IMG/VR virus record: IMGVR_UViG_3300021475_000012
Coordinates: 1-62,037 of that record
Source: a virus
Taxonomy: Duplodnaviria; Caudoviricetes
DNA: 62,037 nt
Reading direction: 5' to 3' (one strand)
This document shows positions 1 to 24,235 of this stretch, piece by piece. The position numbers were made by a program, and so were the translations under genes. The number at the start of each line of letters is the position of its first letter. Position 1 is the first letter of the stretch. The notes below the pieces were generated by a model. It searched no databases and was not told the origin of the DNA. It saw only the letters and a program-made list of their open reading frames with translations.

Positions 1-139
1 TTGCCGTCTTCCCAGGTGCCCATCTGGATGGGCTTGCCGGTGTAGTCGTCGCCCATGTCCTTGCGGGTGTTCCGCCGGTCGTCCTTCAGGTAGCAGGTAT
101 AGAGGGTGACGGAGGGAATACGGGGCAGTTCGGTGTCGG
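1..139. repeat. Terminal overlap (circular assembly), copy 1
   Basis: 1-126 identical to 61899-62024; 127-139 match 62025-62037 with three substitutions to G. Confidence 0.97.
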
Positions 140-887
140 TGGTAGGAGCCTTGCGAAAGGTCCAGATCGGGGAAATGACGTCTGCGGCGGAATCCCGCAT
201 CTTATTCAACCATGTAATGGCAGAGCCGTCACTCTCCGCTTTGACGTCGATGTCGTACTTGTCGCGGATATAGTTGACCGGGACCTTGCGCTTGACGACA
301 ATGCCCTGGCAGGACTCGCAGGACTCGTAGCCCAGGGGGCGTAAAGGGAGGACGTTGCGCGGGTCCTCCGCGCAGGCGTCGATGTCCTCGATGTCCGGGT
401 TCCAGAAGAGGTGTAAGTAGCCGGTGCCGCCAACCACGTAGTACTTGATGGTGTCCGCGAGGCGTAAGTCGATGTTGCGCCGCTGATACCAGAAGGTGGC
501 TAACTTACCGTAGATCTGCGCGTGCTCTTCGAAGCGCCGGTTGGCGACACTGTAGTCCCAGAAGGGGCGGGTGTCGGTCATCATGGCCGCGATATCTTCC
601 GCGATCTTGGCGATCCGGTTGGTGCGCGTGGTGGAGAGGATGCCAGGGGACGTGGAGCGGGTATCGGCGCGGACCAGTTCATCGGTGCTCATGATGGCAT
701 CGATGGCTGCGCTGATTTGATCGAACCCAGGTTGGGAGGAGAGGAAGGCTTCGGATTCGATGACCGCTTCCATCAGCCAGGAGATGGTGGGATTACTAAC
801 GTTGTTGCCGTTGAACTGGGTGCTGGGGACCGGAGAGATCGGCAGGCGAGGCGGGGTCGGAGGACCGGCAACGACAGAAGATCCCAT
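1..887 (-). CDS. Portal protein, N-terminal part (joins 61898..60803 across the junction; about 660 aa total)
   Basis: Open frame from ATG 887 (MGSSVVAGPP...NRIAKIAEDIAAMMTDTRPFW...VGGTGYLHLFWNP) in frame with MGDDYTGKP at 56, the start of the 60803..61954 ORF; lies between terminase and scaffold/capsid. Confidence 0.85.
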   Translation of the reverse strand, partial: MGSSVVAGPPTPPRLPISPVPSTQFNGNNVSNPTISWLMEAVIESEAFLSSQPGFDQISAAIDAIMSTDELVRADTRSTSPGILSTTRTNRIAKIAEDIAAMMTDTRPFWDYSVANRRFEEHAQIYGKLATFWYQRRNIDLRLADTIKYYVVGGTGYLHLFWNPDIEDIDACAEDPRNVLPLRPLGYESCESCQGIVVKRKVPVNYIRDKYDIDVKAESDGSAITWLNKMRDSAADVISPIWTFRKAPTTDTELPRIPSVTLYTCYLKDDRRNTRKDMGDDYTGKPIQMGTWEDG

Positions 888-2011: not shown

Positions 2012-2584
2012 TTACTTAGGCTGGGCTACCGGGGGCGCGGGCTGCGGGGGCCATGTGTCAAGGCCCTTCACAACCAGCCAGCGGTATCCAACACCCACCA
2101 CCCAGATCAGGATAAGGGCCTTGCCCGCGATTCCCGTACCAGGGGGCAACGGGGGCCAGATGGTGGCCGGGGGCATGGGAAGCGTGTTATCCACTTCCGG
2201 GGGTGCGCCAGTGCCGGGAAGAGTGTTATCGGGGCTTCCGGGAACCGGTGGCAAACCCGTATCAGGATGTCCTGGCACCGGAGGTAGACCCGTGTCGGGA
2301 TGTCCTGGGACCGGCGGCAAACCCGTGTCGGGATGACCGGGAGACGGGGGCAAGCCATGACCAGGGCGCACTGGCGGATAGATCACGATGGGATGCGAGG
2401 GGCGCGTGGGACGAGTGGGGGGCCAGACTCCCACCGGGGGGCTGGGCCAGATTCCCGGCGGCAGGGGCGGCAACGAATCCGGGGGCCAGATCTGATCGGG
2501 CGGTCCATCCACACCGAAACCGGGGTCCACGGGTCTCTCCGGCTTCTCGACCGGCGTAATCTTTGCGAAGAAACTATCGGGCAT
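2012..2584 (-). CDS. Proline-rich repeat protein with hydrophobic C-terminal motif
   Basis: (PGHPDTGLPPV)x3 plus PDNTLP variants; C-terminal GKALILIWVVGVGYRWLVV. Confidence 0.75.
   Translation of the reverse strand: MPDSFFAKITPVEKPERPVDPGFGVDGPPDQIWPPDSLPPLPPGIWPSPPVGVWPPTRPTRPSHPIVIYPPVRPGHGLPPSPGHPDTGLPPVPGHPDTGLPPVPGHPDTGLPPVPGSPDNTLPGTGAPPEVDNTLPMPPATIWPPLPPGTGIAGKALILIWVVGVGYRWLVVKGLDTWPPQPAPPVAQPK
2225..2345. repeat. 33-bp tandem repeat encoding PGHPDTGLPPV
   Basis: About 3.5 units with synonymous variation. Confidence 0.8.
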
Positions 2585-2647
2585 AGAGAATTCTCCTATT
2601 TGTAATCTTACTTACGAGGGGTAACTGAGTTACTTCCTTCTACGTTA

Positions 2648-3490
2648 CTACCAATTGTCGAAAATGCTGTTCCAGCCCTCATGAATTTCTTCCAGGCTCA
2701 TATCGGAGCCCTGCCAGTCCACTGGCTCATGGGTCTCGACTTTCTCAGTGGTGCGCTCGATGTTCATACTCCAGGAGTTAGCGATCCAGAGGGCGAGGTT
2801 GAAGGCGCGGACACGGTCGTCATGGCCGTAGGGGTTTTCGGCATAGTTGCGCTCCATGTCCATGCGGCAGTTGGCGTACTCTTCGGCCAGCCAAGGGGAC
2901 TTGACAACGCAGCGTTGCAGGACCAGATGGCGCGAGGCTTTCACCCAGAGATCCCGGTTGGTTTTGTTCGAAGCGTGCCAGCCCATGGAGCGGGTGGGGG
3001 TGGCCGGGGTGTTGCCGTAGAACTCCCACTTGAAGTGGTTGGTGTAGCCAAGCTCCAGGCACTGCTGCAGGGTGCCCGCACCAGGGCCGGGGAAGACTTC
3101 GATGATCACCTTGCACTGGTCCTCATCGATGCCTGAGTAAGCGCGGCCCAGGAGGTTTACTACGTAGGCTAAGTCGAAGGCGTCAACAGGGGCCGCGTAT
3201 TCGGCCACCTGGATGTCGCGCTTGCCGTCCTTGCCCACCTTGATCACTTCGATAGCGCCGTTATCGGTCTTCGCGTCCTCGCGCACGCGGGAGAAGCGAT
3301 TCCAACCGGTGCGGCCCACGGTGGGATCGCAGCCGATGACGTAAGTGGAGCCCTTGTAGGGAGCGTCCCACATCCAGACAATGCCGCGAGGATCGCCGTC
3401 CCATTCGGCGGGGTGCATCTGCTCCAAGCGGCCCGCGCCAACAATGTTATACAGGGCCGGGAAGCCAAGGTTGCGGATCTCTTCGCTCAT
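2648..3490 (-). CDS. terL: Terminase large subunit, nuclease (RNase H-like) domain as a separate gene
   Basis: YVIGCDP, DNGAIEV, IIEV, GHDDRVRAFNLA acidic motifs. Confidence 0.85.
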   Translation of the reverse strand: MSEEIRNLGFPALYNIVGAGRLEQMHPAEWDGDPRGIVWMWDAPYKGSTYVIGCDPTVGRTGWNRFSRVREDAKTDNGAIEVIKVGKDGKRDIQVAEYAAPVDAFDLAYVVNLLGRAYSGIDEDQCKVIIEVFPGPGAGTLQQCLELGYTNHFKWEFYGNTPATPTRSMGWHASNKTNRDLWVKASRHLVLQRCVVKSPWLAEEYANCRMDMERNYAENPYGHDDRVRAFNLALWIANSWSMNIERTTEKVETHEPVDWQGSDMSLEEIHEGWNSIFDNW

Positions 3491-4713
3491 ACTTTGGCCC
3501 TCACTAGCTCCACGTTATAGGGCATGCCCAGCTGCGAGGTGGAGCGCATCCACTCGATAGTCTCCGGCGGCAGGGCGGGACGCGTGGAATGCTGAAAGGA
3601 TTGCTCCGGGGTGGCGCAGTAGTTACTCAGGAAAATGTAGAGGGAGCCTTCCCGCTTGTGCAGGGCATACTCAGTCTCGTACCAATACATCTGGTCCCGG
3701 TTCAGAGTGACTCTCTCCCCGCAGAATTCGGGAGAGGTACGCTCCACCAGTTCAGAGTGCTCGATGGTGGCTTGGTTGGGACGCCAGTTATCGGGGGCGG
3801 CGCGGCGGTACTTCTTGGTCTCGATATACCAGGGAGTAAAGATGTAAATCCAACTCTGAAAGCCTTCCAATTTCCGCCGCACGTTTTCGGTGAAGTCATG
3901 CCAGAAGTTGCCCCGGCCATTGGCAGTCGATTCGAAGGCAACGAAGGTGGTAGGGGATTGGGGGACGGCGGGCAGGAAATCGAACTTCAAGCGCTCCGCG
4001 AATTCCCAGAGGGCGACTTCGGTCATGTGCGAGATGTCGAACTGCTGGCCGGTGCCAACTCCGGCTTTCTGGGAAGACATCTGGTAGATCAGGCGCGACT
4101 TCAGATTCTCAAAAGCGATGTGGGAGTCTTTCACATCGAACTCGATGGCAGGGGTAAGGAACGGCGGCACGTTGTCGATGATGGTCTTGTCCCTGACGTA
4201 TAACTCGTGGATCTTGTCGATGTCCAGGCTACCGGCGATACAACGGGTGTGTTTCCACAAGAGCATGCGGTGGAGAGTGATGAGCCGCATGATCGCGGTA
4301 GCACCCAGCTGGCGCGACTTGTGCCAGACAGAGAGGATGCCGTCACTGAAGCCGTGCTTCTCATACTCGCGCTGGATCTCTTCCTCACGGGCGGCGATTA
4401 AAGACAAGGCTCTCTCCTGGGAGGTCCAGAAAGAGATGGCACTGACGCCCCCGCCCATCGAGGCATCCTGGTCGATGCAGCCGTAGCGCTCCGCGAAGTA
4501 CCTAAAGTCATGCCTGCACAAAATTGTTTCGGAGCGGATGAAAGCTGTTTCGCCTTCCACCAGGGGACGCTTGTACTGGCCGGTCTTGGGGTCCATCAGG
4601 TTGCGCAGGCGAACGGCGATCTCGCGGCACTGGCCGATGTCGCGGCGCTTGGCGATGATCCGCGACTTGGCCAGCTTCCAGAGGGTCTTCTCGACTACCG
4701 CAGCGGAGTACAT
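3487..4713 (-). CDS. terL: Terminase large subunit, ATPase domain as a separate gene
   Basis: KSRQLGAT Walker A, HMTEVALW Walker B, ESTANG coupling motif, YCATPEQSF. Confidence 0.9.
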   Translation of the reverse strand: MYSAAVVEKTLWKLAKSRIIAKRRDIGQCREIAVRLRNLMDPKTGQYKRPLVEGETAFIRSETILCRHDFRYFAERYGCIDQDASMGGGVSAISFWTSQERALSLIAAREEEIQREYEKHGFSDGILSVWHKSRQLGATAIMRLITLHRMLLWKHTRCIAGSLDIDKIHELYVRDKTIIDNVPPFLTPAIEFDVKDSHIAFENLKSRLIYQMSSQKAGVGTGQQFDISHMTEVALWEFAERLKFDFLPAVPQSPTTFVAFESTANGRGNFWHDFTENVRRKLEGFQSWIYIFTPWYIETKKYRRAAPDNWRPNQATIEHSELVERTSPEFCGERVTLNRDQMYWYETEYALHKREGSLYIFLSNYCATPEQSFQHSTRPALPPETIEWMRSTSQLGMPYNVELVRAKV

Positions 4714-4896
4714 CTATTCCTCCGGCTCCCGGTAGCCATAAGCGATCTCGACTTCATCCTTGATGCCGGGAGTGATGGGGACGATGCCGCGAGTGGCAAG
4801 TTCGAGACGGTAGAGATCGCGGAGTTCTTCCAGGGTGTTGGCGATTCGCAGGAGGGACTTTGCAAAGAGATGAATCGCACGTAAGGCAAGAAACAT
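4714..4896 (-). CDS. Small hypothetical protein
   Basis: ORF track; abuts the TerL start. Confidence 0.6.
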   Translation of the reverse strand: MFLALRAIHLFAKSLLRIANTLEELRDLYRLELATRGIVPITPGIKDEVEIAYGYREPEE

Positions 4897-4991: not shown

Positions 4992-5864
4992 TCAATCCTC
5001 AACGCTTTCGGCCTGGACGGTGATCGGCGCGGGGAGCCGCTCCAGTTCATCGATCACGCTCTCTACTGCGGAGGAGCCGGTGTTGATCGTAATCTGCGTG
5101 CCGGTGTTGGCACCCTTGATGACGCCGGTCGCTTTCAGGACCAGTTCGCGGGCCTTGGCGTCCCCGGCTTTGCGCACAGAACCCTCGCCTTTGCATTGCA
5201 CGCAAGTAAGCCAGTAGGAACCCTTCTTGCCGCCCCGCTGCACATGGATCTCACCGGCACCGTCGCAACGGGGGCAACAGATGGTGGTGCCCAGGGCCGC
5301 TTCCACGGTCTGCGCGGCCACGGCGGGAGCGCCCGCGTACAGCTGGCCGATGGTGGCCGTGAGGCGGTCGCTGCGCCAGATCGCCATGATGTCGGAGAGG
5401 GGAATGTTCTGGCGCATCGCGATGGTCGCCGGATCGAGATCCACGTTCTCCGGGTCCATCAACGCGCAGAGATAATCGAGGGCTTTGTCCGAATCATCCT
5501 TGGCCAGGGCGTACTTCAACTCTTCGATGTTGATCGTCTCCAGGTAGCGCCGGAAACCGGTGAGGCGGGCGTGGCGCATCATGTCGGTATCGTATTGCTT
5601 CCGCGTCATCGACTGGATGGGGAGAGTGAGGGTGGTGCAGCCGCCGTTCTCATCGGGCACCATCTTGTCCTGGAGATCGCGCAGGGGATTGTCAATGGCA
5701 CGCATGCGGCGCTTCTTCACTCCCGCGCCCTGGGTGCCCTGCTCGACACGATATTGTTCGGTCGCCATTTCCAGACGGGTGCGCCGCTTGCGCCGCTTCT
5801 TCTTCACCGGCTCCGGGTGGAATTCGAACGGCTTCTCTTCGGGCTGGATTTCAGGCGTCTCCAT
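4992..5864 (-). CDS. Candidate terminase small subunit with DnaJ-type CxxCxGxG Zn finger
   Basis: Upstream of TerL; CPRCDGAG...CVQCKGEG; C-terminal TQITINTG tail. Confidence 0.45.
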   Translation of the reverse strand: METPEIQPEEKPFEFHPEPVKKKRRKRRTRLEMATEQYRVEQGTQGAGVKKRRMRAIDNPLRDLQDKMVPDENGGCTTLTLPIQSMTRKQYDTDMMRHARLTGFRRYLETINIEELKYALAKDDSDKALDYLCALMDPENVDLDPATIAMRQNIPLSDIMAIWRSDRLTATIGQLYAGAPAVAAQTVEAALGTTICCPRCDGAGEIHVQRGGKKGSYWLTCVQCKGEGSVRKAGDAKARELVLKATGVIKGANTGTQITINTGSSAVESVIDELERLPAPITVQAESVED

Positions 5865-5870
5865 CGGAAA

Positions 5871-6035
5871 TTACTTGGGAGCCTTCATGGGCAGGCCGCT
5901 GGTCTTGGTGCGGGCGAATTCGCGCAGCTGCGGCTTCTTCATTTTGAGTAGGCCGGAGTTCCGCTTGTAGAGCTTGTCGGGTGCGTGCTCCGCGATTGCC
6001 GTGGCCTCTTGCTGGTCTTTCGAAACAGAAGGCAT
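5871..6035 (-). CDS. 54-aa DUF3008-like basic protein
   Basis: Read by hand: MPSVSKDQQEATAIAEHAPDKLYKRNSGLLKMKKPQLREFARTKTSGLPMKAPK. Confidence 0.6.
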   Translation of the reverse strand: MPSVSKDQQEATAIAEHAPDKLYKRNSGLLKMKKPQLREFARTKTSGLPMKAPK

Positions 6036-6150
6036 GAGAGAAGTCCTCCCCTATTTCTGAGGGTATCAGCGAGGTCAAGAAAAGGCCGCTTTTAAAGGAG
6101 GAGAACCGGAAGCGAAATGACCGGAATCAGGTCGGAATGCTTCCGGTGCC

Positions 6151-6340
6151 AATCGACAAAATCGACAAAATCGACAAAGCCATAACGGAAAAAACGGCAA
6201 CAGCGAACTGCAGAGACATCAAAAAGCCCGTAAATGGCGTGTATTTGGCGTTTCTTGAGCTAACCAAGGGCACTGTGTATTGCTGATTATTTTCAATCAT
6301 TTAGAGAAATCTCATATGCCAAAATCGACAAAATCGACAA
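6151..6340. other. Putative attP: AATCGACAA x3 (6151-6177) and x2 (6323-6340) flanking an AT-rich core
   Basis: Direct 9-bp repeats immediately upstream of the integrase, arranged like arm-type sites. Confidence 0.65.
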
Positions 6341-6360
6341 ATGCCTGTTAGACTCGATGC

Positions 6361-7659
6361 ATGACCTTGAACTACCACCGATGCCACAGCACAGACTGCG
6401 AGGGCAAGCATCCCGCGAAGACATTTACGAGCGAAACGGAAGAACATGTGAAGGGCTGGAAGCGATGCCACTGCCCCATCGTCGCCAGCGGCACTCTCAA
6501 TCGCGTGGCCAAGCGCAAGGCCACCAAGCAAACCGAATGGGCCGCAGCTGCGGAGGTGATGGTTCCCTACATCGTGGCCAAATCCTGGGTTCTTCCAGAA
6601 GACGAGCCGCCCACTCCACCGGCCCCCAAGGCACCCGTACCACCTCCCCAGACTCCCGCGCCCGCCTCTGATAAAGTCACCGTCAAAGCAGCAACTGAGG
6701 AGTACATCAAGGAACACCAAAAAGCGGAATCGGCACCGACTACGCTCGATGGACACCGGCAACGAATGGCATCGATCTGCAAGTTCGCGGAAGAAACCGG
6801 CTGGCTCTACCTGACCGATTGGGACGCCAAAATCGCCAACCAATACCTGAATCAATTTCGAGTCGCCCCCATCACGGCACGCAAGTACCGAAAGATGGTG
6901 AAGGCATTTTTCGCGTGGTGCATCGCCAAGGAATGGATCGCAACCAACCCCGGCAAGGCCGTTGCCGTGATCAACAATCGCGCCACCAGCCTGCTGAAAG
7001 TGGGGAAGGAAAGGCAACCTCTTGTCGATGCGGAACTGGAACGCATGTATCAGGGATGCCTGCGATACGACGCCCTGTTCCCGGTGCGCAAATGGAGAGG
7101 AGAGGATCTGGCGGATTTCATCGCTCTCTCCGTTCACACCGGCCTGCGAATTTCGGATGTCGCCACCTTCAATATCAACCGGTTGAAAGGCGCGGATGAG
7201 GTCCGCATCCGCACGCTGAAGAGAGGCAAGATGGTCTACACCGTTGTGCCGCCCTGGTTGGCAGAACGCATCCGCATTCGGGCAGAGAAGTTTGGCCCAC
7301 TGATTTTCGGTGCTCATCGTTCCACCAAACTTGACGTCATCACCCACTGCTGGCGGATGCGGTTGAACGAACTCTGGAAGCAATGCGGCTCCTGGGAGAT
7401 CAAGCCTACGCCGCACCGCTTCCGGCATACCTTCTGTCGCATTCTGCTGGAAAGCGGCAGATCCTACGCCGATGTCGCGGACCTGACCGGCGACACAGAA
7501 GCCGTAATCCGGGAACACTACGCATCCTGGGTACCGGGACGGCAAGAACGGGTCTCTAAACTGCTGCGCGAATCCTTCGCGGATGTGCCGGTCCCGGCAT
7601 ACGCCAGATCAAACAAGCCTGCCAGAGTGATCGAGATGGTCAAAGTTAAACGCGGATAG
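6361..7659 (+). CDS. int: Tyrosine integrase
   Basis: HTGLRISD, K, HRFRHTF, LTGD...HY catalytic motifs; N-terminal H/C-rich arm domain (HRCHSTDC...CHCP). Confidence 0.93.
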   Translation: MTLNYHRCHSTDCEGKHPAKTFTSETEEHVKGWKRCHCPIVASGTLNRVAKRKATKQTEWAAAAEVMVPYIVAKSWVLPEDEPPTPPAPKAPVPPPQTPAPASDKVTVKAATEEYIKEHQKAESAPTTLDGHRQRMASICKFAEETGWLYLTDWDAKIANQYLNQFRVAPITARKYRKMVKAFFAWCIAKEWIATNPGKAVAVINNRATSLLKVGKERQPLVDAELERMYQGCLRYDALFPVRKWRGEDLADFIALSVHTGLRISDVATFNINRLKGADEVRIRTLKRGKMVYTVVPPWLAERIRIRAEKFGPLIFGAHRSTKLDVITHCWRMRLNELWKQCGSWEIKPTPHRFRHTFCRILLESGRSYADVADLTGDTEAVIREHYASWVPGRQERVSKLLRESFADVPVPAYARSNKPARVIEMVKVKRG

Positions 7660-20570: not shown

Positions 20571-20782
20571 TGAAAAAGCAATACCGCATTCAACGTAGCG
20601 ACTATCTGGGTATCGTTACCCGCGCCTTTGGGGGCAGATGTGCTTCCTGGTCCCCGTGGCGCACTGTGATAGCCCGCGATCATGAGGAAGACGCTACGGC
20701 GCTGTATGACGCATGGTCCCGTAAGGGACTCACCCGCTGGCGGCTGATGTATGGCAAGGAAGTTATCCGCAAGAGTGAATAA
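20570..20782 (+). CDS. Hypothetical protein
   Basis: TAATG coupling. Confidence 0.6.
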   Translation: MKKQYRIQRSDYLGIVTRAFGGRCASWSPWRTVIARDHEEDATALYDAWSRKGLTRWRLMYGKEVIRKSE

Positions 20783-20919
20783 TCGACAAAGGACACCCAC
20801 AATGCACACATTGGATCTCACCCAATACGACGTCACGGTGTGACTAATAGCCCACTAGGAGCCCACCTATACGGAGGGCTCCCGTGGGGGCTGTTAGCCC
20901 TCATATCGAAAGGACACTT

Positions 20920-21144
20920 ATGACATACGTAATCAGACTGATCAACGACAACTCGATGCAAACGCTGTACAGCGGCAATTCCGCTAAAGCCGCCCAGAAG
21001 GCCGTGGATATGGCACGCGGCATCCTGATCATCTCCGGCGGCACTGCTGGCATCTATGGGCACGTTTGGGGCAAGACCGCCCTGTTGTGGGAAGTGAACG
21101 ACGGCCAAGCCACATGCCCCGAAGGGACCAGCCCGCTGGCATGA
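20920..21144 (+). CDS. Hypothetical protein
   Basis: Leader motif; MTYVIRL... Confidence 0.7.
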   Translation: MTYVIRLINDNSMQTLYSGNSAKAAQKAVDMARGILIISGGTAGIYGHVWGKTALLWEVNDGQATCPEGTSPLA

Positions 21145-21243
21145 TAGAACTGATTGAAGTCCTGGGCTTTGTCGCGCTAATGATCGTAATCTATATCGGA
21201 AAGAGAAAAGGATTGTGGAAGTAAGTAATCGAAAGGACATCTT

Positions 21244-21504
21244 ATGGCATACGTAAAGCAAACCAACGGCACGATTCGCGAAGTACTCAACCTGGGCTGG
21301 ATCTTGCGCCACTGGCAACATGTGGAACGCCTGGAATGGATCTCCGGCCCTGGGGGCTGGAATAACACCTTCCGCGCTTACCTGAAGGATGGACGCGAGT
21401 ACGTCACCGACTACGCTTGCTTCGAAGTCTGGAAGGGCTTTATCAATCGCCCCGTGTTTCGCGGGCTACCAGCCACGGTCGACGGCATCACCGGACGCAT
21501 CTAA
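21244..21504 (+). CDS. Hypothetical protein
   Basis: Leader motif. Confidence 0.75.
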   Translation: MAYVKQTNGTIREVLNLGWILRHWQHVERLEWISGPGGWNNTFRAYLKDGREYVTDYACFEVWKGFINRPVFRGLPATVDGITGRI

Positions 21505-21530
21505 CATCAATCGAAAAGGACACTAATACC

Positions 21531-21962
21531 ATGCAAACGACGATCAATAAGAACCTCCTGCAGTACGCGGTCCAGACCGCTATCGCTTGCCCCCGTTGCG
21601 CGAAAGTGCTCGACATGCGCCAAGCGGTTACCACTACCCTGACCGTGCCGGATAACGGCACGCGCCAATTCACCATGTGCTGCGCCTGTTGGGACAAGGT
21701 GCGCCTGGAACTCCATGACCTTGCCATCGGCATCAAGGGCAACCTTGACGTCTTAGATGGCCGCGACTTATTCCCTCCCACCTTGGCCGAAGCTAAGCGC
21801 ATCGTGAAGGCCATGGGGATGACCCTCCGCTATGATCGCGAGTACCAGGAGTACAGCGTCAACTATCCCGGCGGCAAAGAGGCTACCCGCTGCTACACCA
21901 ATGACATCCTCGATGCCATCGGGACCGCTAAGGCCATGGCCAAGGCAAAGGGAGGCAAGTAA
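21531..21962 (+). CDS. Zn-finger hypothetical protein (CPRC...CACW)
   Basis: Leader motif. Confidence 0.7.
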   Translation: MQTTINKNLLQYAVQTAIACPRCAKVLDMRQAVTTTLTVPDNGTRQFTMCCACWDKVRLELHDLAIGIKGNLDVLDGRDLFPPTLAEAKRIVKAMGMTLRYDREYQEYSVNYPGGKEATRCYTNDILDAIGTAKAMAKAKGGK

Positions 21963-21963
21963 G

Positions 21964-22668
21964 ATGCAGCTTCTCCGCAATAAGACGAGCAACCGCTACT
22001 GCGGGCCGAATGCCCTGGCCCTGCTCACCGGCCAGCATGTGGACGATGTGACCCGCATGCTGCGCATGGTATCCGGCAGGCCCGCGATCAAGGGCACGCA
22101 TAACCGGCATATGTTAGCCGTCCTGGAGCGCCTGGGCTTTAGCGCATTGCCGGTCCCCCTGGGGGCCGGTGCCGATACCCGGAAGGGCAAGCGCACCTCC
22201 TGCCCTACCCTGGCGAAGGCCCTGCGCACCGTTCTCAAGGACCGCCAAGCCTCTCAACGGTTCCTGGTAGTGGTTGGGCACCACTACGTGTGCATCCAGG
22301 GCCGGAAGGTCTGGGATTACCGCGACTACCCGGAAGGGGAGTTCCTGGGCTCCTGTAAGCTGCGGCGGTGCCGCGTCACCGGCATCTGGGCAGTGAGCCT
22401 GAAGGGGGACCAGCCGGTCCCCCCACCGGCCAAGCCCGCCTCTACCGCGATGCAACGCGCCCGCTTCATTCCGGCCATTGAGAAGCTGGGCCTGGAAGTG
22501 GACGCCGATGTGGTTGATGCCCCCAGGGGCTTTGTGTTCAGCGGCACGGGCAACCATTGCCGCGCCATCACCGGCACTTATGCCGAAGCCCTGGAAGATA
22601 TCCAGAGCATTCTGCCCCTGGTGCCTTGCACAGATCCCGATTGCGACATGTGCCAGGAGGAGAACTAA
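21964..22668 (+). CDS. Putative papain-fold (C39-like) cysteine peptidase
   Basis: YCGPNALA helix-start Cys and GHHYV...WD. Confidence 0.5.
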   Translation: MQLLRNKTSNRYCGPNALALLTGQHVDDVTRMLRMVSGRPAIKGTHNRHMLAVLERLGFSALPVPLGAGADTRKGKRTSCPTLAKALRTVLKDRQASQRFLVVVGHHYVCIQGRKVWDYRDYPEGEFLGSCKLRRCRVTGIWAVSLKGDQPVPPPAKPASTAMQRARFIPAIEKLGLEVDADVVDAPRGFVFSGTGNHCRAITGTYAEALEDIQSILPLVPCTDPDCDMCQEEN

Positions 22669-22669
22669 C

Positions 22670-23092
22670 ATGACGGTATATCACTGCACCTGGACACGGC
22701 TGGTTGACCGCATTTATAAGCAAGGCCTGCGCACTATGCAGGCTTCCAACTGGAAGATAGCCTCTAATGGCACCCGCTACGGGAGTGGGGCTATCTTCGC
22801 CTTCGCCAGTAAGTGGGACGCCATCCGTTGGGCGGCTAAGATGGACTGGCAGTTCTATGGGCGGCACGCCACGGGAGAGGTCACCATTCTCACCCTGGAA
22901 CATGAGGGCCCCTGGATTACCGATGACGCGGACCCGCTTACCCAGGCGCAATGCGAGGGCCCCTGGCTCAAGACATATCATCATATTCCCGGAGCCGCGA
23001 TCACCGATGCGGATCTGTTGACGCAGGATATGGTCAAAGCCCTGGTCAAGCGCGTCAATCAGCCCCAGTTAGCTAGAATCGAAGGCAAGTAA
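22670..23092 (+). CDS. Putative ADP-ribosyltransferase-fold protein
   Basis: VYHCT....I...GL and GAIFAF motifs. Confidence 0.45.
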   Translation: MTVYHCTWTRLVDRIYKQGLRTMQASNWKIASNGTRYGSGAIFAFASKWDAIRWAAKMDWQFYGRHATGEVTILTLEHEGPWITDDADPLTQAQCEGPWLKTYHHIPGAAITDADLLTQDMVKALVKRVNQPQLARIEGK

Positions 23093-23114
23093 TCTCAATC
23101 GAAAAGGACACCTT

Positions 23115-23474
23115 ATGACAACGAACATTAAAGAGCAGGTATTTCCCAAGAGCAGTCTCTTCTCCCCCGGCAACGGGCGCGACTATCTCAAGACCCCCGA
23201 AGGCGAGATCTTCTCCATCAATGGCCTGTACTGCGACAAGGACGGCAACCAGGACCGTTGGGGAAGCTATACCAAAGTCATCGACATCCGCTGGACGGTA
23301 GTCATCTGGCAGGACTGCTATGTGGGCCTGAATCCCGATTACAGCTATAAGACAGAGCGCCGTCTGGTATTCACAGGCGATAACCGGGATGAGGAGATCC
23401 TGGCACGCTACGGCTACCGGATGGAACGTGACGCGGAAGGCTACAAGAACGTATTCCCCCTGGAGGTCAAGTAA
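23115..23474 (+). CDS. Hypothetical protein
   Basis: Leader motif. Confidence 0.75.
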   Translation: MTTNIKEQVFPKSSLFSPGNGRDYLKTPEGEIFSINGLYCDKDGNQDRWGSYTKVIDIRWTVVIWQDCYVGLNPDYSYKTERRLVFTGDNRDEEILARYGYRMERDAEGYKNVFPLEVK

Positions 23475-23477
23475 GTT

Positions 23478-23753
23478 ATGCCGCGCTTTGTGGTGGGGAC
23501 CGGCCAGCGTTGCCCTATGACAGAGCACTTGAAGATCGCCCTGGTAGCCAAGCGCGTGAACTGGCTGGTCTACCTGGGTTACCAGGGCATCCTCATCACC
23601 GATAAGGAAAGCGGTTGGAAGTGCATTGCCAATGGCAAGGTAACCGCAGAGCAGCTAACTAAGGCTCTGCATGCGGATGAGGTAAGCATCGCCCATCTGC
23701 TGAAGCGTAGAGAGTACCAGAAGAAACAATATCGAAAGGACAAAGAACGATGA
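23478..23753 (+). CDS. Hypothetical protein
   Basis: ORF track. Confidence 0.55.
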   Translation: MPRFVVGTGQRCPMTEHLKIALVAKRVNWLVYLGYQGILITDKESGWKCIANGKVTAEQLTKALHADEVSIAHLLKRREYQKKQYRKDKER

Positions 23754-24004
23754 TATTCCCCACAATCCACCTGAACGGCACTAATCCCCAGGACCTCCTG
23801 GAAGACCAGCTGCACATGATCGATAAGTTACGGGACGCCATCCGCGCCATGGAGCACAACGGCCCCAATGGCCGGGACTACTATCCCCAGGGCTCCCAGG
23901 CGTTCCAGCATGCCGTGGAGGAGCACGAGCAGCGGCTCCTGGTATTGCGCAACGTCCTGGCTGAGCTAGAGACGATTGCGGAACATGTGGCGAAGCACGT
24001 TTAA
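23750..24004 (+). CDS. Hypothetical phage protein (PTIHLNGT...PNGRDYYPQG)
   Basis: Leader motif. Confidence 0.75.
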   Translation: MIFPTIHLNGTNPQDLLEDQLHMIDKLRDAIRAMEHNGPNGRDYYPQGSQAFQHAVEEHEQRLLVLRNVLAELETIAEHVAKHV

Positions 24005-24026
24005 TCGAAAGGACACCATAAGCAAC

Positions 24027-24164
24027 ATGACGCGCAAACAACTGATCGAGGAAGTCCAGAAGCTGCGGAGGAAGGGTGACCCTCTGGTCCCCTTCGATAA
24101 AGCGGAGCTAGAACAACGCCTGAAGGAATACCAGGAGAGGGAGAAAGCTAAGCCACGGGCCTAA
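24027..24164 (+). CDS. 45-aa hypothetical protein
   Basis: Leader motif. Confidence 0.6.
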   Translation: MTRKQLIEEVQKLRRKGDPLVPFDKAELEQRLKEYQEREKAKPRA

Positions 24165-24235
24165 GGGCACCCTGGATCGGGCTCCCATGCCGGAGCCCCT
24201 TCCAGGCTATCCTTAGCCTATATCGAAAGGACACT

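Follow-up and report, generated by a model that had tools for sequence, protein, structure and literature searches.

The large terminase subunit (TerL) is a hallmark enzyme of tailed phages and herpesviruses, and is normally a single two-domain polypeptide. Must its two parts be joined in one chain? The question is raised by an uncultured soil phage (Caudoviricetes; record IMGVR_UViG_3300021475_000012, rated 95% complete by CheckV), whose whole 62,037-nt stretch of DNA is referred to here as the window. A preliminary description of the window had noticed an ATPase gene and a nuclease gene in place of one terL. We found that the large terminase of this phage consists of two genes, one for the motor ATPase and one for the nuclease, and that most of its relatives likewise have the terminase as two genes. 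The fused nuclease domain is called a universal feature of TerL in a review (PMC7824862). The split lineage is a natural test of that requirement.

TerL was not a single polypeptide in the window: two ORFs lie in different frames with a stop/start overlap (Table 1). ORF A contains NYCATPEQSFQHS and has the C-terminal end ELVRAKV, and ORF B has the N-terminus MSEEIRNLGF. On the minus strand, the ORF B ATG (3490-3488) overlaps the ORF A TGA (3489-3487). The ATGA overlap, the GAGGG upstream of it and the VRAKV end of ORF A were all as the preliminary description had them. This layout resembles the arrangement typical of translational coupling. Among 74 unique related loci, a 4-nt overlap (ATGA, GTGA or TTGA) was present in 18 and a 1-nt overlap in 6. 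By itself an ATGA overlap is common; what goes beyond chance is the pairing of two halves of one normally single protein and the recurrence of the split among the relatives.

Table 1. Features of the two terminase genes, with positions in the window
Feature	Position	Strand	Remark
ORF A, TerL ATPase chain	3487..4713	-	408 aa + TGA stop
ORF B, TerL nuclease chain	2648..3490	-	280 aa + TAG stop
ATGA junction, ORF A stop over ORF B start	3487..3490	-	plus strand reads TCAT
GAGGG, Shine-Dalgarno-like	3498..3502	-	7 nt upstream of ORF B ATG; putative function
Deviant Walker A, K132-S-R134-Q-L-G-A138-T139	4297..4320	-	aligns to T4 SRQLGKT
E232, candidate catalytic glutamate after Walker B strand (ISHMT-E)	4018..4020	-	aligns to T4 MIYID-E256
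Chain A C-terminal tail, residues 380-408	3490..3576	-	beyond ATPase fold; conserved G-M-P-Y strand (397-399)
D55, first catalytic acidic residue (YVIGCD-P)	3326..3328	-	aligns to Asp of RB49/T4 ATLDCSEG
E131, second catalytic acidic residue (IIE-V)	3098..3100	-	aligns to RB49/T4 VYIEL
D225, third catalytic acidic residue (HDD-RV)	2816..2818	-	aligns to RB49/T4 HDDLV

To identify the product of ORF A, we compared a profile of 27 homologs with the PDB and obtained the ATPase domain of T4 gp17 (E 3.3e-8). The AF2 model (pLDDT 88.2) had 2o0j, the T4 gp17 ATPase, as its top Foldseek match (E 1.4e-12). It was superposed on T4 gp17 by VIA-align with Z 22.8 and an rmsd of 3.4 A over 276 aligned residues (model 32..379, T4 73..360), and phi29 gp16 (5hd9) was a fold neighbour (Z 12.3). 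Weak matches to TerL families were found in PHROGs (phrog_5989, 3.8e-7; phrog_2, 1.2e-5). These results indicate that ORF A is a T4-gp17-like TerL ATPase domain, with an ASCE P-loop and a TerL-type fold. Its nucleotide-binding motifs are deviant: Ala138 occupies the lysine position of GK[ST], K132 lies two residues before R134, and Thr231 occupies the position of the Walker B aspartate. K132, R134, Q135, T139 and E232 were invariant in the 27 ORF A sequences, and T231 was nearly so. A lambda-type Walker A motif, KSA-R79-VGYS, is given in Table 1 of PMC6379665. By likeness to this motif, ORF A may have ATPase activity despite lacking the canonical Walker A lysine and Walker B aspartate. A tie between the deviant Walker A motif and the split was ruled out, as fused relatives carry the same motif.

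Similarly, a profile of 29 stand-alone homologs of ORF B matched the nuclease of RB49 gp17 (3c6a, E 4.5e-7) and also T4 gp17. All 18 Foldseek matches of the AF2 model (pLDDT 86.4) at E <= 0.001 were terminase nuclease domains of phages or herpesviruses, and VIA-align superposed it on T4 gp17 with Z 20.9 and an rmsd of 2.2 A over 181 aligned residues (model 9..242, T4 375..558). In the model, an RNase-H/RuvC-like fold occupies residues ~9-242, and the C-terminal extension after it contains a helix at 266-279. D55, which aligns to the T4 residue that we take to be D401, E131 and D225 were invariant in the 29 ORF B sequences. ORF B is the RNase-H-like nuclease domain of TerL, with its acidic metal-binding triad. 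ORF layout, profiles and folds together confirm that TerL is split into an ATPase gene and a nuclease gene.

Neither ORF matched any Pfam family at E <= 0.1, and ORF B matched no PHROGs family. No further TerL turned up in the 62-kb record: PF03237, PF17289 and PF03354 gave no match, and phrog_2 matched ORF A alone. When 50,697 phage records were searched by tblastn, the TerLs of cultured phages that ORF A matched were no more than 27% identical to it, and ORF B matched nothing; the phage therefore has no annotated close relative. In genome contigs searched with the ATPase alignment, none of 36 pattern matches was confirmed. This clade will be missed or mis-scored by pipelines that look for one TerL of ~500-700 aa or a Pfam match, since Pfam recognises neither half; phylogenies based on TerL would have to include both genes. 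Elsewhere in the record, a portal-like ORF (3-887, minus strand) weakly matched phrog_156 (1.3e-5), and no small terminase was identified. An integrase is located nearby.

We then located the break within the protein. The ATPase fold extends to about residue 379 in ORF A and the nuclease fold begins at about residue 9 of ORF B, and the break therefore falls ~29 residues past the ATPase fold, in an expanded linker. Mapping onto T4 gp17 placed the hinge equivalent inside chain A, with the chain break ~25-29 residues further on. The earlier placing of the break at the inter-domain linker thus holds only roughly, for the expanded linker, and not for the exact hinge. In the fused relatives compared, the break site is occupied by a variable, plain hydrophilic linker of 16-35 residues. 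Compared with T4 gp17 (3cpe, 2o0j, 3c6a), the soil phage enzyme has the same folds in the same ATPase-then-nuclease order and retains the arginine of Walker A, the catalytic glutamate and the nuclease's acidic triad. Unlike T4 gp17, it is made from two genes as two polypeptides, and its Walker A lysine is displaced, as in lambda. Its linker, moreover, has ~37 residues (A 380-408 plus B 1-8) against T4 361-374, and the first part of this linker is predicted to dock on the nuclease.

To learn how far the split extends, we fetched 87 related loci, which reduced to 74 unique ones: 65 were split, 3 fused and 6 uninformative. Thus the same split was found in related phages, the opposite of a situation in which all close relatives are fused. 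Among the best 120 of 214 ORF A homologs, 109 had 395-450 aa, 3 were fused, 2 contained inteins and 6 were fragments. Natural fused relatives include proteins of 693 and 712 aa. The members of the clade are uncultured phages with genomes of ~60-65 kb, for the most part from soil. In 34 of the 65 split loci the halves abut or overlap; the others have a short spacer (3 loci), a spacer of 151-330 nt (11 loci) or an insert of more than 330 nt (17 loci), so that spacers or whole genes part the halves in 31. One relative, whose genome is complete and has direct terminal repeats, carries its halves ~3.5 kb apart. The inserts matched HNH_3 above the Pfam cut-off in L037, L038, L064 and L070 and just below it in L005 and L007; the insert of L053 gave a weak LAGLIDADG match, and an ORF for a C5 DNA methylase (142 bits) was also among the inserts. 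A homing endonuclease gene therefore sits between the halves in some relatives while the halves abut in sister loci, and none is present in the window itself.

The majority of split loci, the selection described below and the separation of the halves in relatives support well the genuine two-chain enzyme that had been suggested for this locus. We consider it very likely that TerL is made here as two separately translated chains, inherited and selected as such, and is not an error, a pseudogene, a recoded gene or a spliced one. A 1-nt indel of assembly or sequencing, or a gene of a defective prophage that has lately become a pseudogene, would fit with the origin of the window in a metagenome assembly and with the nearby integrase; either is, however, hardly credible. 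An independent, diverged contig (L001) has the same junction and differs from the window by 49 nt across both genes, with 37 synonymous and 2 non-synonymous codon differences in ORF A and 7 and 1 in ORF B. This excess of synonymous changes (44 against 3) points to purifying selection on both halves. When the probable source run was assembled a second time (k-mer depth 16), the result was identical to the window over 2600-4800, with no indel, in a comparison made by contigs in which the run covering the junction (X1) may be the source sample itself. Contigs of two other soil DNA runs with the sequence (X2 and X3) do not cover the junction; no RNA sequencing run with this sequence was listed. 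Moreover, 65 of the 68 informative unique loci are split, and the catalytic residues are invariant.

The preliminary description had also offered programmed recoding. On such a view, the functional product would be a single fused TerL, made by -1 frameshifting, by bypassing or by slippage of transcription near the ATGA. ORF B does lie in the -1 frame, which in the near-identical L001 is open for 132 nt upstream of the ATG, but the same frame is open for just 9 nt in L002 and L003. No canonical -1 slippery heptamer (X_XXY_YYZ) was found at a usable fusing position in any of the 17 loci with a 4-nt overlap that were inspected, junction nucleotide sequences differ among relatives, and ORF B has its own start codon and Shine-Dalgarno-like site. 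The inserted genes rule out a frameshift fusion in many relatives, and recoding is highly improbable. There is next to no probability, likewise, that a group I intron or a split intein joins the halves at the RNA or protein level. The usual halves of inteins are larger than the ~29 residues of chain A and ~8 of chain B that lie outside the folds, which are too short for a split intein; the plain linker at this place in fused relatives and the scarcity of spare residues led us to reject that candidate. As to an intron, the ORFs of the window overlap and therefore leave no intervening RNA, a search of 11 loci, including the window region and the endonuclease inserts, at Rfam gathering scores gave no match to the curated models, and in L005 the inserted HNH gene overlaps both neighbouring halves and therefore leaves no room for a ribozyme. 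These points outweigh the precedent of terL genes interrupted by introns and homing endonucleases, documented in PMC4246154 and PMC12880540, and the apparent inteins elsewhere in relatives (P0051, P0120 and L018, judged by sequence reading and length).

How two separately translated chains could act as one TerL was addressed by predicting the structure of both halves together, a check proposed at the outset. Three runs scored 0.88, 0.88 and 0.87, against 0.00 for the best control. The score rates association and not affinity; it was computed from unpaired alignments and may in part reproduce intramolecular packing from solved full-length TerL structures. Its mark was attained by 58 of 80 solved complexes, compared with 2 of 110 mismatched pairs. 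The partners had a pLDDT of 76-77, and at least 77% of contacts were common to the runs. The predicted interface joins chain A 375-405 to chain B 10-41, 98-113 and 182-217; confident contacts of chain A were confined to 375-405, with no confident contact between the ATPase core and the nuclease. When chain A was folded alone, pLDDT fell below 50 for residues 392-408, with block means of 60, 42 and 39 along the tail. Within the tail, R390 and Y399 are invariant and P398 is nearly so. The tail of the ATPase chain is thus predicted to dock on the nuclease chain, and the hinge equivalent therefore probably stays covalent within chain A.

Alternatively, there might be no stable protomer, the ATPase chain alone forming the translocating ring on the portal and a free nuclease being recruited for initiation and headful cuts. 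Genes up to ~3.5 kb apart would loosen stoichiometric coupling, the predicted contacts to chain B come from the tail of chain A alone, isolated TerL nuclease domains are stable enough for crystals, and the phi29 gp16 ATPase packages without an active nuclease. Yet we regard a free nuclease as unlikely: the complex prediction strongly passes against its controls, no role for R390, P398 and Y399 is apparent within the ATPase fold, the tail of an unpartnered chain A is disordered, and the genes abut or overlap in more than half of the split loci (34 of 65).

We next examined the history of the two forms in a tree of 83 ATPase sequences, made by a quick method and with some long branches. The outgroup and the basal lineages were all fused, and a clade of 64 rows (support 99*) held 54 split sequences and 10 scattered fused ones. 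At least 9 changes between split and fused forms, direction left aside, were required on this tree, 6 of them forced by starred branches. An AU test rejected a single clade of all split forms (delta lnL 540.5, p 0.0029), for a group that was defined by the trait and put to the test once the tree was known. Fused forms at the base and scattered within the split clade, together with the rejected monophyly, argue that fission and fusion recurred; the family thus appears to have changed more than once or twice between having one gene and having two. The HNH-bearing loci were scattered tips within the already-split clade and would therefore be later insertions. The first split would most likely have originated in the insertion of an endonuclease gene.

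Taken together, these findings suggest the following model for two-chain TerL. A 408-aa ATPase chain and a 280-aa nuclease chain would be made from adjacent genes of one operon, in similar amounts, with the ATGA overlap, aided by GAGGG, probably coupling their translation. The split would be inherited and kept by selection across a large clade of uncultured phages. The break would lie in a variable hydrophilic loop, past the ATPase fold and a short tail (a helix and the GMPY strand). This tail would stay with the ATPase chain and extend the nuclease fold, and the two chains are predicted to re-form a TerL-like protomer non-covalently, with the hinge equivalent covalent in chain A. The gap between the halves has become a place where genes for HNH homing endonucleases, for a DNA methylase and for other products land.

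On balance we favour, with rather less assurance, the broader reading that the covalent link between packaging ATPase and headful nuclease is dispensable, that this lineage drives its motor with a two-chain TerL joined through a docking tail and has switched forms repeatedly, and that the gap became a landing pad for homing endonucleases, methylases and others. The T4 translocation model has the nuclease domain moving about a covalent hinge, residues 354-364 (PMC3074133). If our reading is true, the clade would be a natural system in which to test models that need such movement, and selfish endonuclease genes could permanently re-architect a hallmark virus protein. A chain cut just past the hinge, with both halves selected, would reveal which covalent links are dispensable; the tail with its GMPY strand would suggest a docking element that is transferable. 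Natural versions with one chain and with two, matched at 53-56% identity, exist for comparison. The junction clearly exemplifies a hotspot at which homing endonuclease genes and other cargo have entered an essential operon.

Genes of T4-like phages are known in pieces through free-standing homing endonucleases, such as Aeh1 nrdA, split by mobE, and the T4 topoisomerase genes 39 and 60; in these cases an essential enzyme is cut at a tolerated site and the two chains reassemble. As there, an endonuclease gene occupies the site in some genomes of the soil phage family. By contrast, the enzyme here is a different one, and its split is clade-wide, appears to have been reversed several times and has collected other genes. 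The context of gene 60 is mentioned in PMC5009743. In the interrupted terL of phD2B and the Jug phages, likewise, the gene lies in at least two ORFs, and homing endonuclease genes between the pieces resemble those in some soil-phage relatives; RNA splicing that restores one frame was proposed (phD2B) or shown (Jug phages). The window differs in having no intervening sequence or intron match and in giving each half its own start and stop, and in this family the split form persists where the endonuclease gene is absent.

The literature that we searched, with subscription journals, supplements and database annotation notes outside it, contained intron or endonuclease cases of split TerL, and an intron-less two-gene TerL was undescribed there. 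Annotation lists for some actinophages may label an 'ATPase domain' and a 'nuclease domain' separately. In herpesvirus and phage papers, some of them on P2-like phages, 'terminase ATPase subunit' looks like the name of a subunit and not a domain split.

Two further systems bear partial likeness. Phi29 gp16 (5hd9) is a packaging ATPase chain without an active nuclease on the same polypeptide, its nuclease domain being vestigial according to PMC7672431. The phi29 nuclease decayed in place because phi29 needs no cutting, whereas the soil phage keeps an intact nuclease, with its catalytic residues, as a separate gene. The intein-containing TerL of cyanophage Mic1 (PMC7156551) illustrates, like the apparent inteins in soil-phage relatives, that mobile elements target terL, but protein splicing restores a single chain there and no intein lies at the soil-phage junction. 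Inteins appear to be borne within the ATPase chain and within the nuclease chain of relatives.

The gene encoding the large terminase (TerL), the DNA-packaging enzyme that is normally one two-domain polypeptide, is split in the window into an ATPase gene (ORF A, encoding chain A) and a nuclease gene (ORF B, encoding chain B), which overlap in an ATGA; this confirms the observation made in the preliminary description. Relative to ORF A, ORF B is read in the −1 frame. The window spans an entire 62,037-bp virus record and is classed as linear, with a completeness of 95% as estimated by CheckV.

Features of the terminase genes and their surroundings
Feature	Position	Strand	Details
ORF A	4713..3487	minus	408 aa; includes NYCATPEQSFQHS; C-terminal end ELVRAKV, then TGA
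ORF B	3490..2648	minus	280 aa; N-terminus MSEEIRNLGF
ATGA junction	3490-3487	minus	ORF B ATG and ORF A TGA, three bases in common
GAGGG	3502-3498	minus	7 nt upstream of ORF B ATG
Deviant Walker A, K-S-R-Q-L-G-A-T	4297-4320	minus	lambda-like, without the GK[ST] lysine
Walker B region	4018-4023	minus	Thr at the position of the T4 Walker B Asp; next Glu invariant
Portal-like ORF	3-887	minus	weak match
KTSC-domain ORF	1697-1954	minus	Pfam, 65.8 bits; between nuclease gene and portal-like gene
Tyrosine integrase	6361-7659	plus	phrog_1, 3.4e-31; Pfam Phage_integrase; 1.6 kb from terminase genes

Pfam recognised neither ORF, and PHROGs gave weak TerL matches for ORF A and no match for ORF B. A profile of 27 ORF A homologs matched the ATPase domain of T4 gp17 (E = 3.3e-8), aligning SRQLGAT of ORF A with the T4 Walker A motif SRQLGKT and ..SHMTE with ..YIDE. 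The nuclease domains of RB49 and T4 gp17 (3c6a, E = 4.5e-7) were matched by a 29-sequence ORF B profile, in which D55, E131 and D225 are invariant and aligned with metal-binding acidic residues. AlphaFold2 predicted folds consistent with these identities (pLDDT 88.2 for chain A and 86.4 for chain B). In Foldseek searches, the top matches of the chain A model were T4 gp17 ATPase structures (E = 1.4e-12), and all 18 matches of the chain B model at E ≤ 0.001 were nuclease domains from phage or herpesvirus terminases. VIA-align placed residues 32..379 of chain A onto T4 73..360 (Z 22.8, rmsd 3.4 Å, 276 aligned) and residues 9..242 of chain B onto T4 375..558 (Z 20.9, rmsd 2.2 Å, 181 aligned). A second TerL was not detected in the record: three Pfam terminase models gave no match, and phrog_2 matched ORF A alone. 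Fused relatives carry the same deviant ATPase motif, indicating that it is a family trait unconnected with the split. The two genes would together encode a TerL in function and ancestry, but one without the single-polypeptide feature.

The ATGA junction is identical in L001, a diverged contig of another record with 41 nucleotide differences from the window in gene A and 8 in gene B. Synonymous codon differences outnumber non-synonymous ones in both genes (37 versus 2 in gene A, 7 versus 1 in gene B), indicating that both frames, as split, are under purifying selection. A second assembly (Logan contigs), whose sequencing run possibly represents the source sample itself, is identical over 2600-4800 at a k-mer depth of 16, with no indel; two further soil runs cover parts of the terminase genes, with the junction outside their contigs.

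The same split is widespread among relatives. A word-indexed protein search with ORF A found 214 homologs; the best 120, classified down to 43% identity, comprise 109 chains of 395-450 aa, 3 fused proteins (693, 712 and 714 aa), 2 ATPase chains that appear from their sequence to bear inteins, and 6 fragments. Searched exhaustively against 50%-identity cluster representatives, ORF B had 227 matches, and among the best 150 there are 47 stand-alone chains of 250-330 aa, 54 proteins of at least 600 aa in which the matched region is mostly C-terminal, 37 shorter than 250 aa and 12 intermediate. In a few of the 54 long proteins the matched region is interrupted and near the N-terminus, suggesting inteins. 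We examined 7 viral and 80 metagenome loci, which left 74 after removal of 13 duplicates: 65 are split, 3 are fused (L021, L079 and L088), and 6 are uninformative owing to a contig end or a second half out of range. Together with the selection on both frames, this distribution lends good support to the genuine two-chain TerL put forward in the preliminary description.

In 34 of the 65 split loci the genes abut or overlap, with a 4-nt overlap (ATGA, GTGA or TTGA) in 18 and a 1-nt overlap (TGATG or TAATG) in 6. A short spacer separates the halves in 3 loci; in 11 the spacer measures 151-330 nt and mostly contains a small ORF, and in 17 more than 330 nt intervene. In L060, one of the three short-spacer loci, the ATPase frame extends about 280 nt beyond the start of the nuclease frame (~2150-2450), which may be an assembly indel. 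In one relative, represented by L007 and L065, the ATPase gene itself lies in two overlapping frames (2983-3900 and 3681-4250 in L007), owing either to a frameshift inside this gene or to misassembly. In P0083, an ATPase-chain homolog of 444 aa, the GMPY-equivalent region is followed by about 40 unrelated, low-complexity residues that look like read-through into another frame.

Programmed recoding, the other possibility raised in the preliminary description, would join the two frames by a −1 shift. No canonical X_XXY_YYZ heptamer was found where such a shift could do so in the 17 scanned loci with a 4-nt overlap, two of which offer a usable −1 stretch of only 9 nt, and the junction nucleotides vary between relatives. 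In many relatives, spacers and inserted genes between the halves rule out fusion by frameshifting, and recoding is thus not supported. As for splicing, Rfam detected no family, and hence neither a group I nor a group II intron, in 11 loci, among them the window region and those with inserts. In L005, an HNH gene overlaps both neighbouring genes. A split intein was likewise rejected, as only about 29 residues of chain A and about 8 of chain B lie outside the mapped folds, and fused relatives have a plain hydrophilic linker at the junction position.

The preliminary description had placed the break at the inter-domain linker. The hinge of T4 gp17 is assigned to residues 354-364 in PMC3074133; mapping through the T4 alignments of both chains puts its equivalent at about A 373-383, within proline-rich ..STRPALPPE.., and the counterpart of T4 361-374 is A 380-408 together with B 1-8. 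Fused relatives have, between the conserved GMPY strand of the tail and the nuclease start FP..VG, a hydrophilic linker that is not conserved (16-35 residues in 9 of 10 sister pairs, 5 in the tenth). In the same sister-pair comparison, split chain A ends 1-12 residues beyond GMPY, and split chain B starts 0-27 residues ahead of the first matched residue. When chain A was folded alone, the ATPase domain was confident and residues 392-408 had pLDDT below 50. Modelling of the complex predicted that the halves associate, with scores of 0.88, 0.88 and 0.87 versus 0.00 for the best of three controls, although unpaired alignments were used and the score may partly reflect likeness to solved full-length TerL structures. 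Among solved complexes, 58 of 80 reach the mark for such predictions; among mismatched pairs, 2 of 110 do. The partners had a pLDDT of 76-77, and at least 77% of contacts were common to the runs. Confident contacts involve only A 375-405, docked onto B 10-41, 98-113 and 182-217, and the predicted error is lowest between A 397-400 and B 37-41 and 22-24, corresponding to an extra strand on the nuclease sheet. The models thus predict that the cut lies in the loop just beyond this docking tail, so that the hinge would still be covalent within chain A.

Several genes occupy the space between the halves. HNH_3 endonuclease ORFs score above the Pfam cut-off in L037, L038, L064 and L070 and just under it in L005 and L007; L015 carries a C5 cytosine DNA methyltransferase (5424-6347, plus strand; Pfam DNA_methylase, 142 bits), and other inserted ORFs have weak, sub-cut-off matches to LAGLIDADG, D12 methylase and PAPS-reductase families. 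For L006, whose record is a complete genome (G001:C1; 58,606 bp, direct terminal repeats), a search of the entire record located the nuclease gene downstream of the ATPase stop at a distance of about 3.5 kb (~20688-24168); at least five ORFs lie in this gap, among them one for an HTH_3 protein, one for a P-loop protein and one with a weak likeness to radical-SAM proteins. To judge from their sequence and length and from interrupted matches, apparent inteins lie inside the ATPase chain in P0051 (657 aa), P0120 (653 aa) and the L018 ATPase ORF (763 aa), at two different sites, one of them inside the Walker A loop, and inside the nuclease chain in P0134, P0146 and P0144.

For 83 ATPase sequences, a maximum-likelihood tree was inferred by a quick method, keeping those columns in which at least 50% of rows had a residue. 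Of the rows, 54 are split, namely the window and 53 unique loci whose ATPase gene is complete and whose second half was detected, and 29 are fused, taken from 3 loci and from 26 proteins of the ORF A and ORF B searches, five of them serving as outgroup. All rows of the outgroup and of four basal lineages are fused, and a 64-row clade (99% SH-aLRT) holds all split rows together with 10 scattered fused rows; on this tree, the fused state is therefore probably ancestral, and more than one switch has occurred. At least nine state changes are required, six of them forced by starred branches. Constraining the split rows to one group cost 540.5 log-likelihood units (p-AU 0.0029), for a group that is defined by the trait and was tested after inspection of the tree. 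Parsimony is compatible both with a single old split followed by several re-fusions and with many independent splits; a 1-nt insertion would suffice to re-fuse genes from a 4-nt overlap. The HNH-bearing loci are scattered tips whose sisters have abutting halves, and they record later insertions into an already-split site. Endonuclease genes have produced other genes in pieces, and by analogy the first cut in TerL may have been made by insertion of such a gene.

Published interrupted terL genes are cases of introns or endonucleases where a single frame is recovered by splicing, e.g. Lelliottia phage phD2B, and K1E (PMC4246154), and the Jug phages, with splicing demonstrated by RNA reads (PMC12880540); an intein-bearing TerL is described for Mic1 (PMC7156551). 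Unlike phD2B and the Jug phages, the window has no intron match (Rfam) at the junction. In the openly accessible full texts of articles, no account was found of a TerL without introns whose two chains are translated separately. The system offers a mechanistic test and an example of recurrent fission and fusion at a mobile-gene hotspot.

The surroundings fit the packaging region of a temperate phage, a lifestyle suggested by the nearby integrase; no cultured phage is closely related. Directly downstream of the nuclease gene, a 190-aa proline-rich ORF without a family match (2012-2584, minus strand) contains three near-identical GHPDTGLPPVP-like repeats. Just upstream of the terminase genes, with a 60-aa ORF in between, lies a 290-aa ORF (4992-5864, minus strand) with a basic N-terminus and a CxxC...CxxC zinc-ribbon-like segment; it has no match in Pfam or PHROGs and is a candidate for the small terminase. 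In L005 and L007, the ATPase gene is preceded by an ORF that resembles it in C-terminal sequence.
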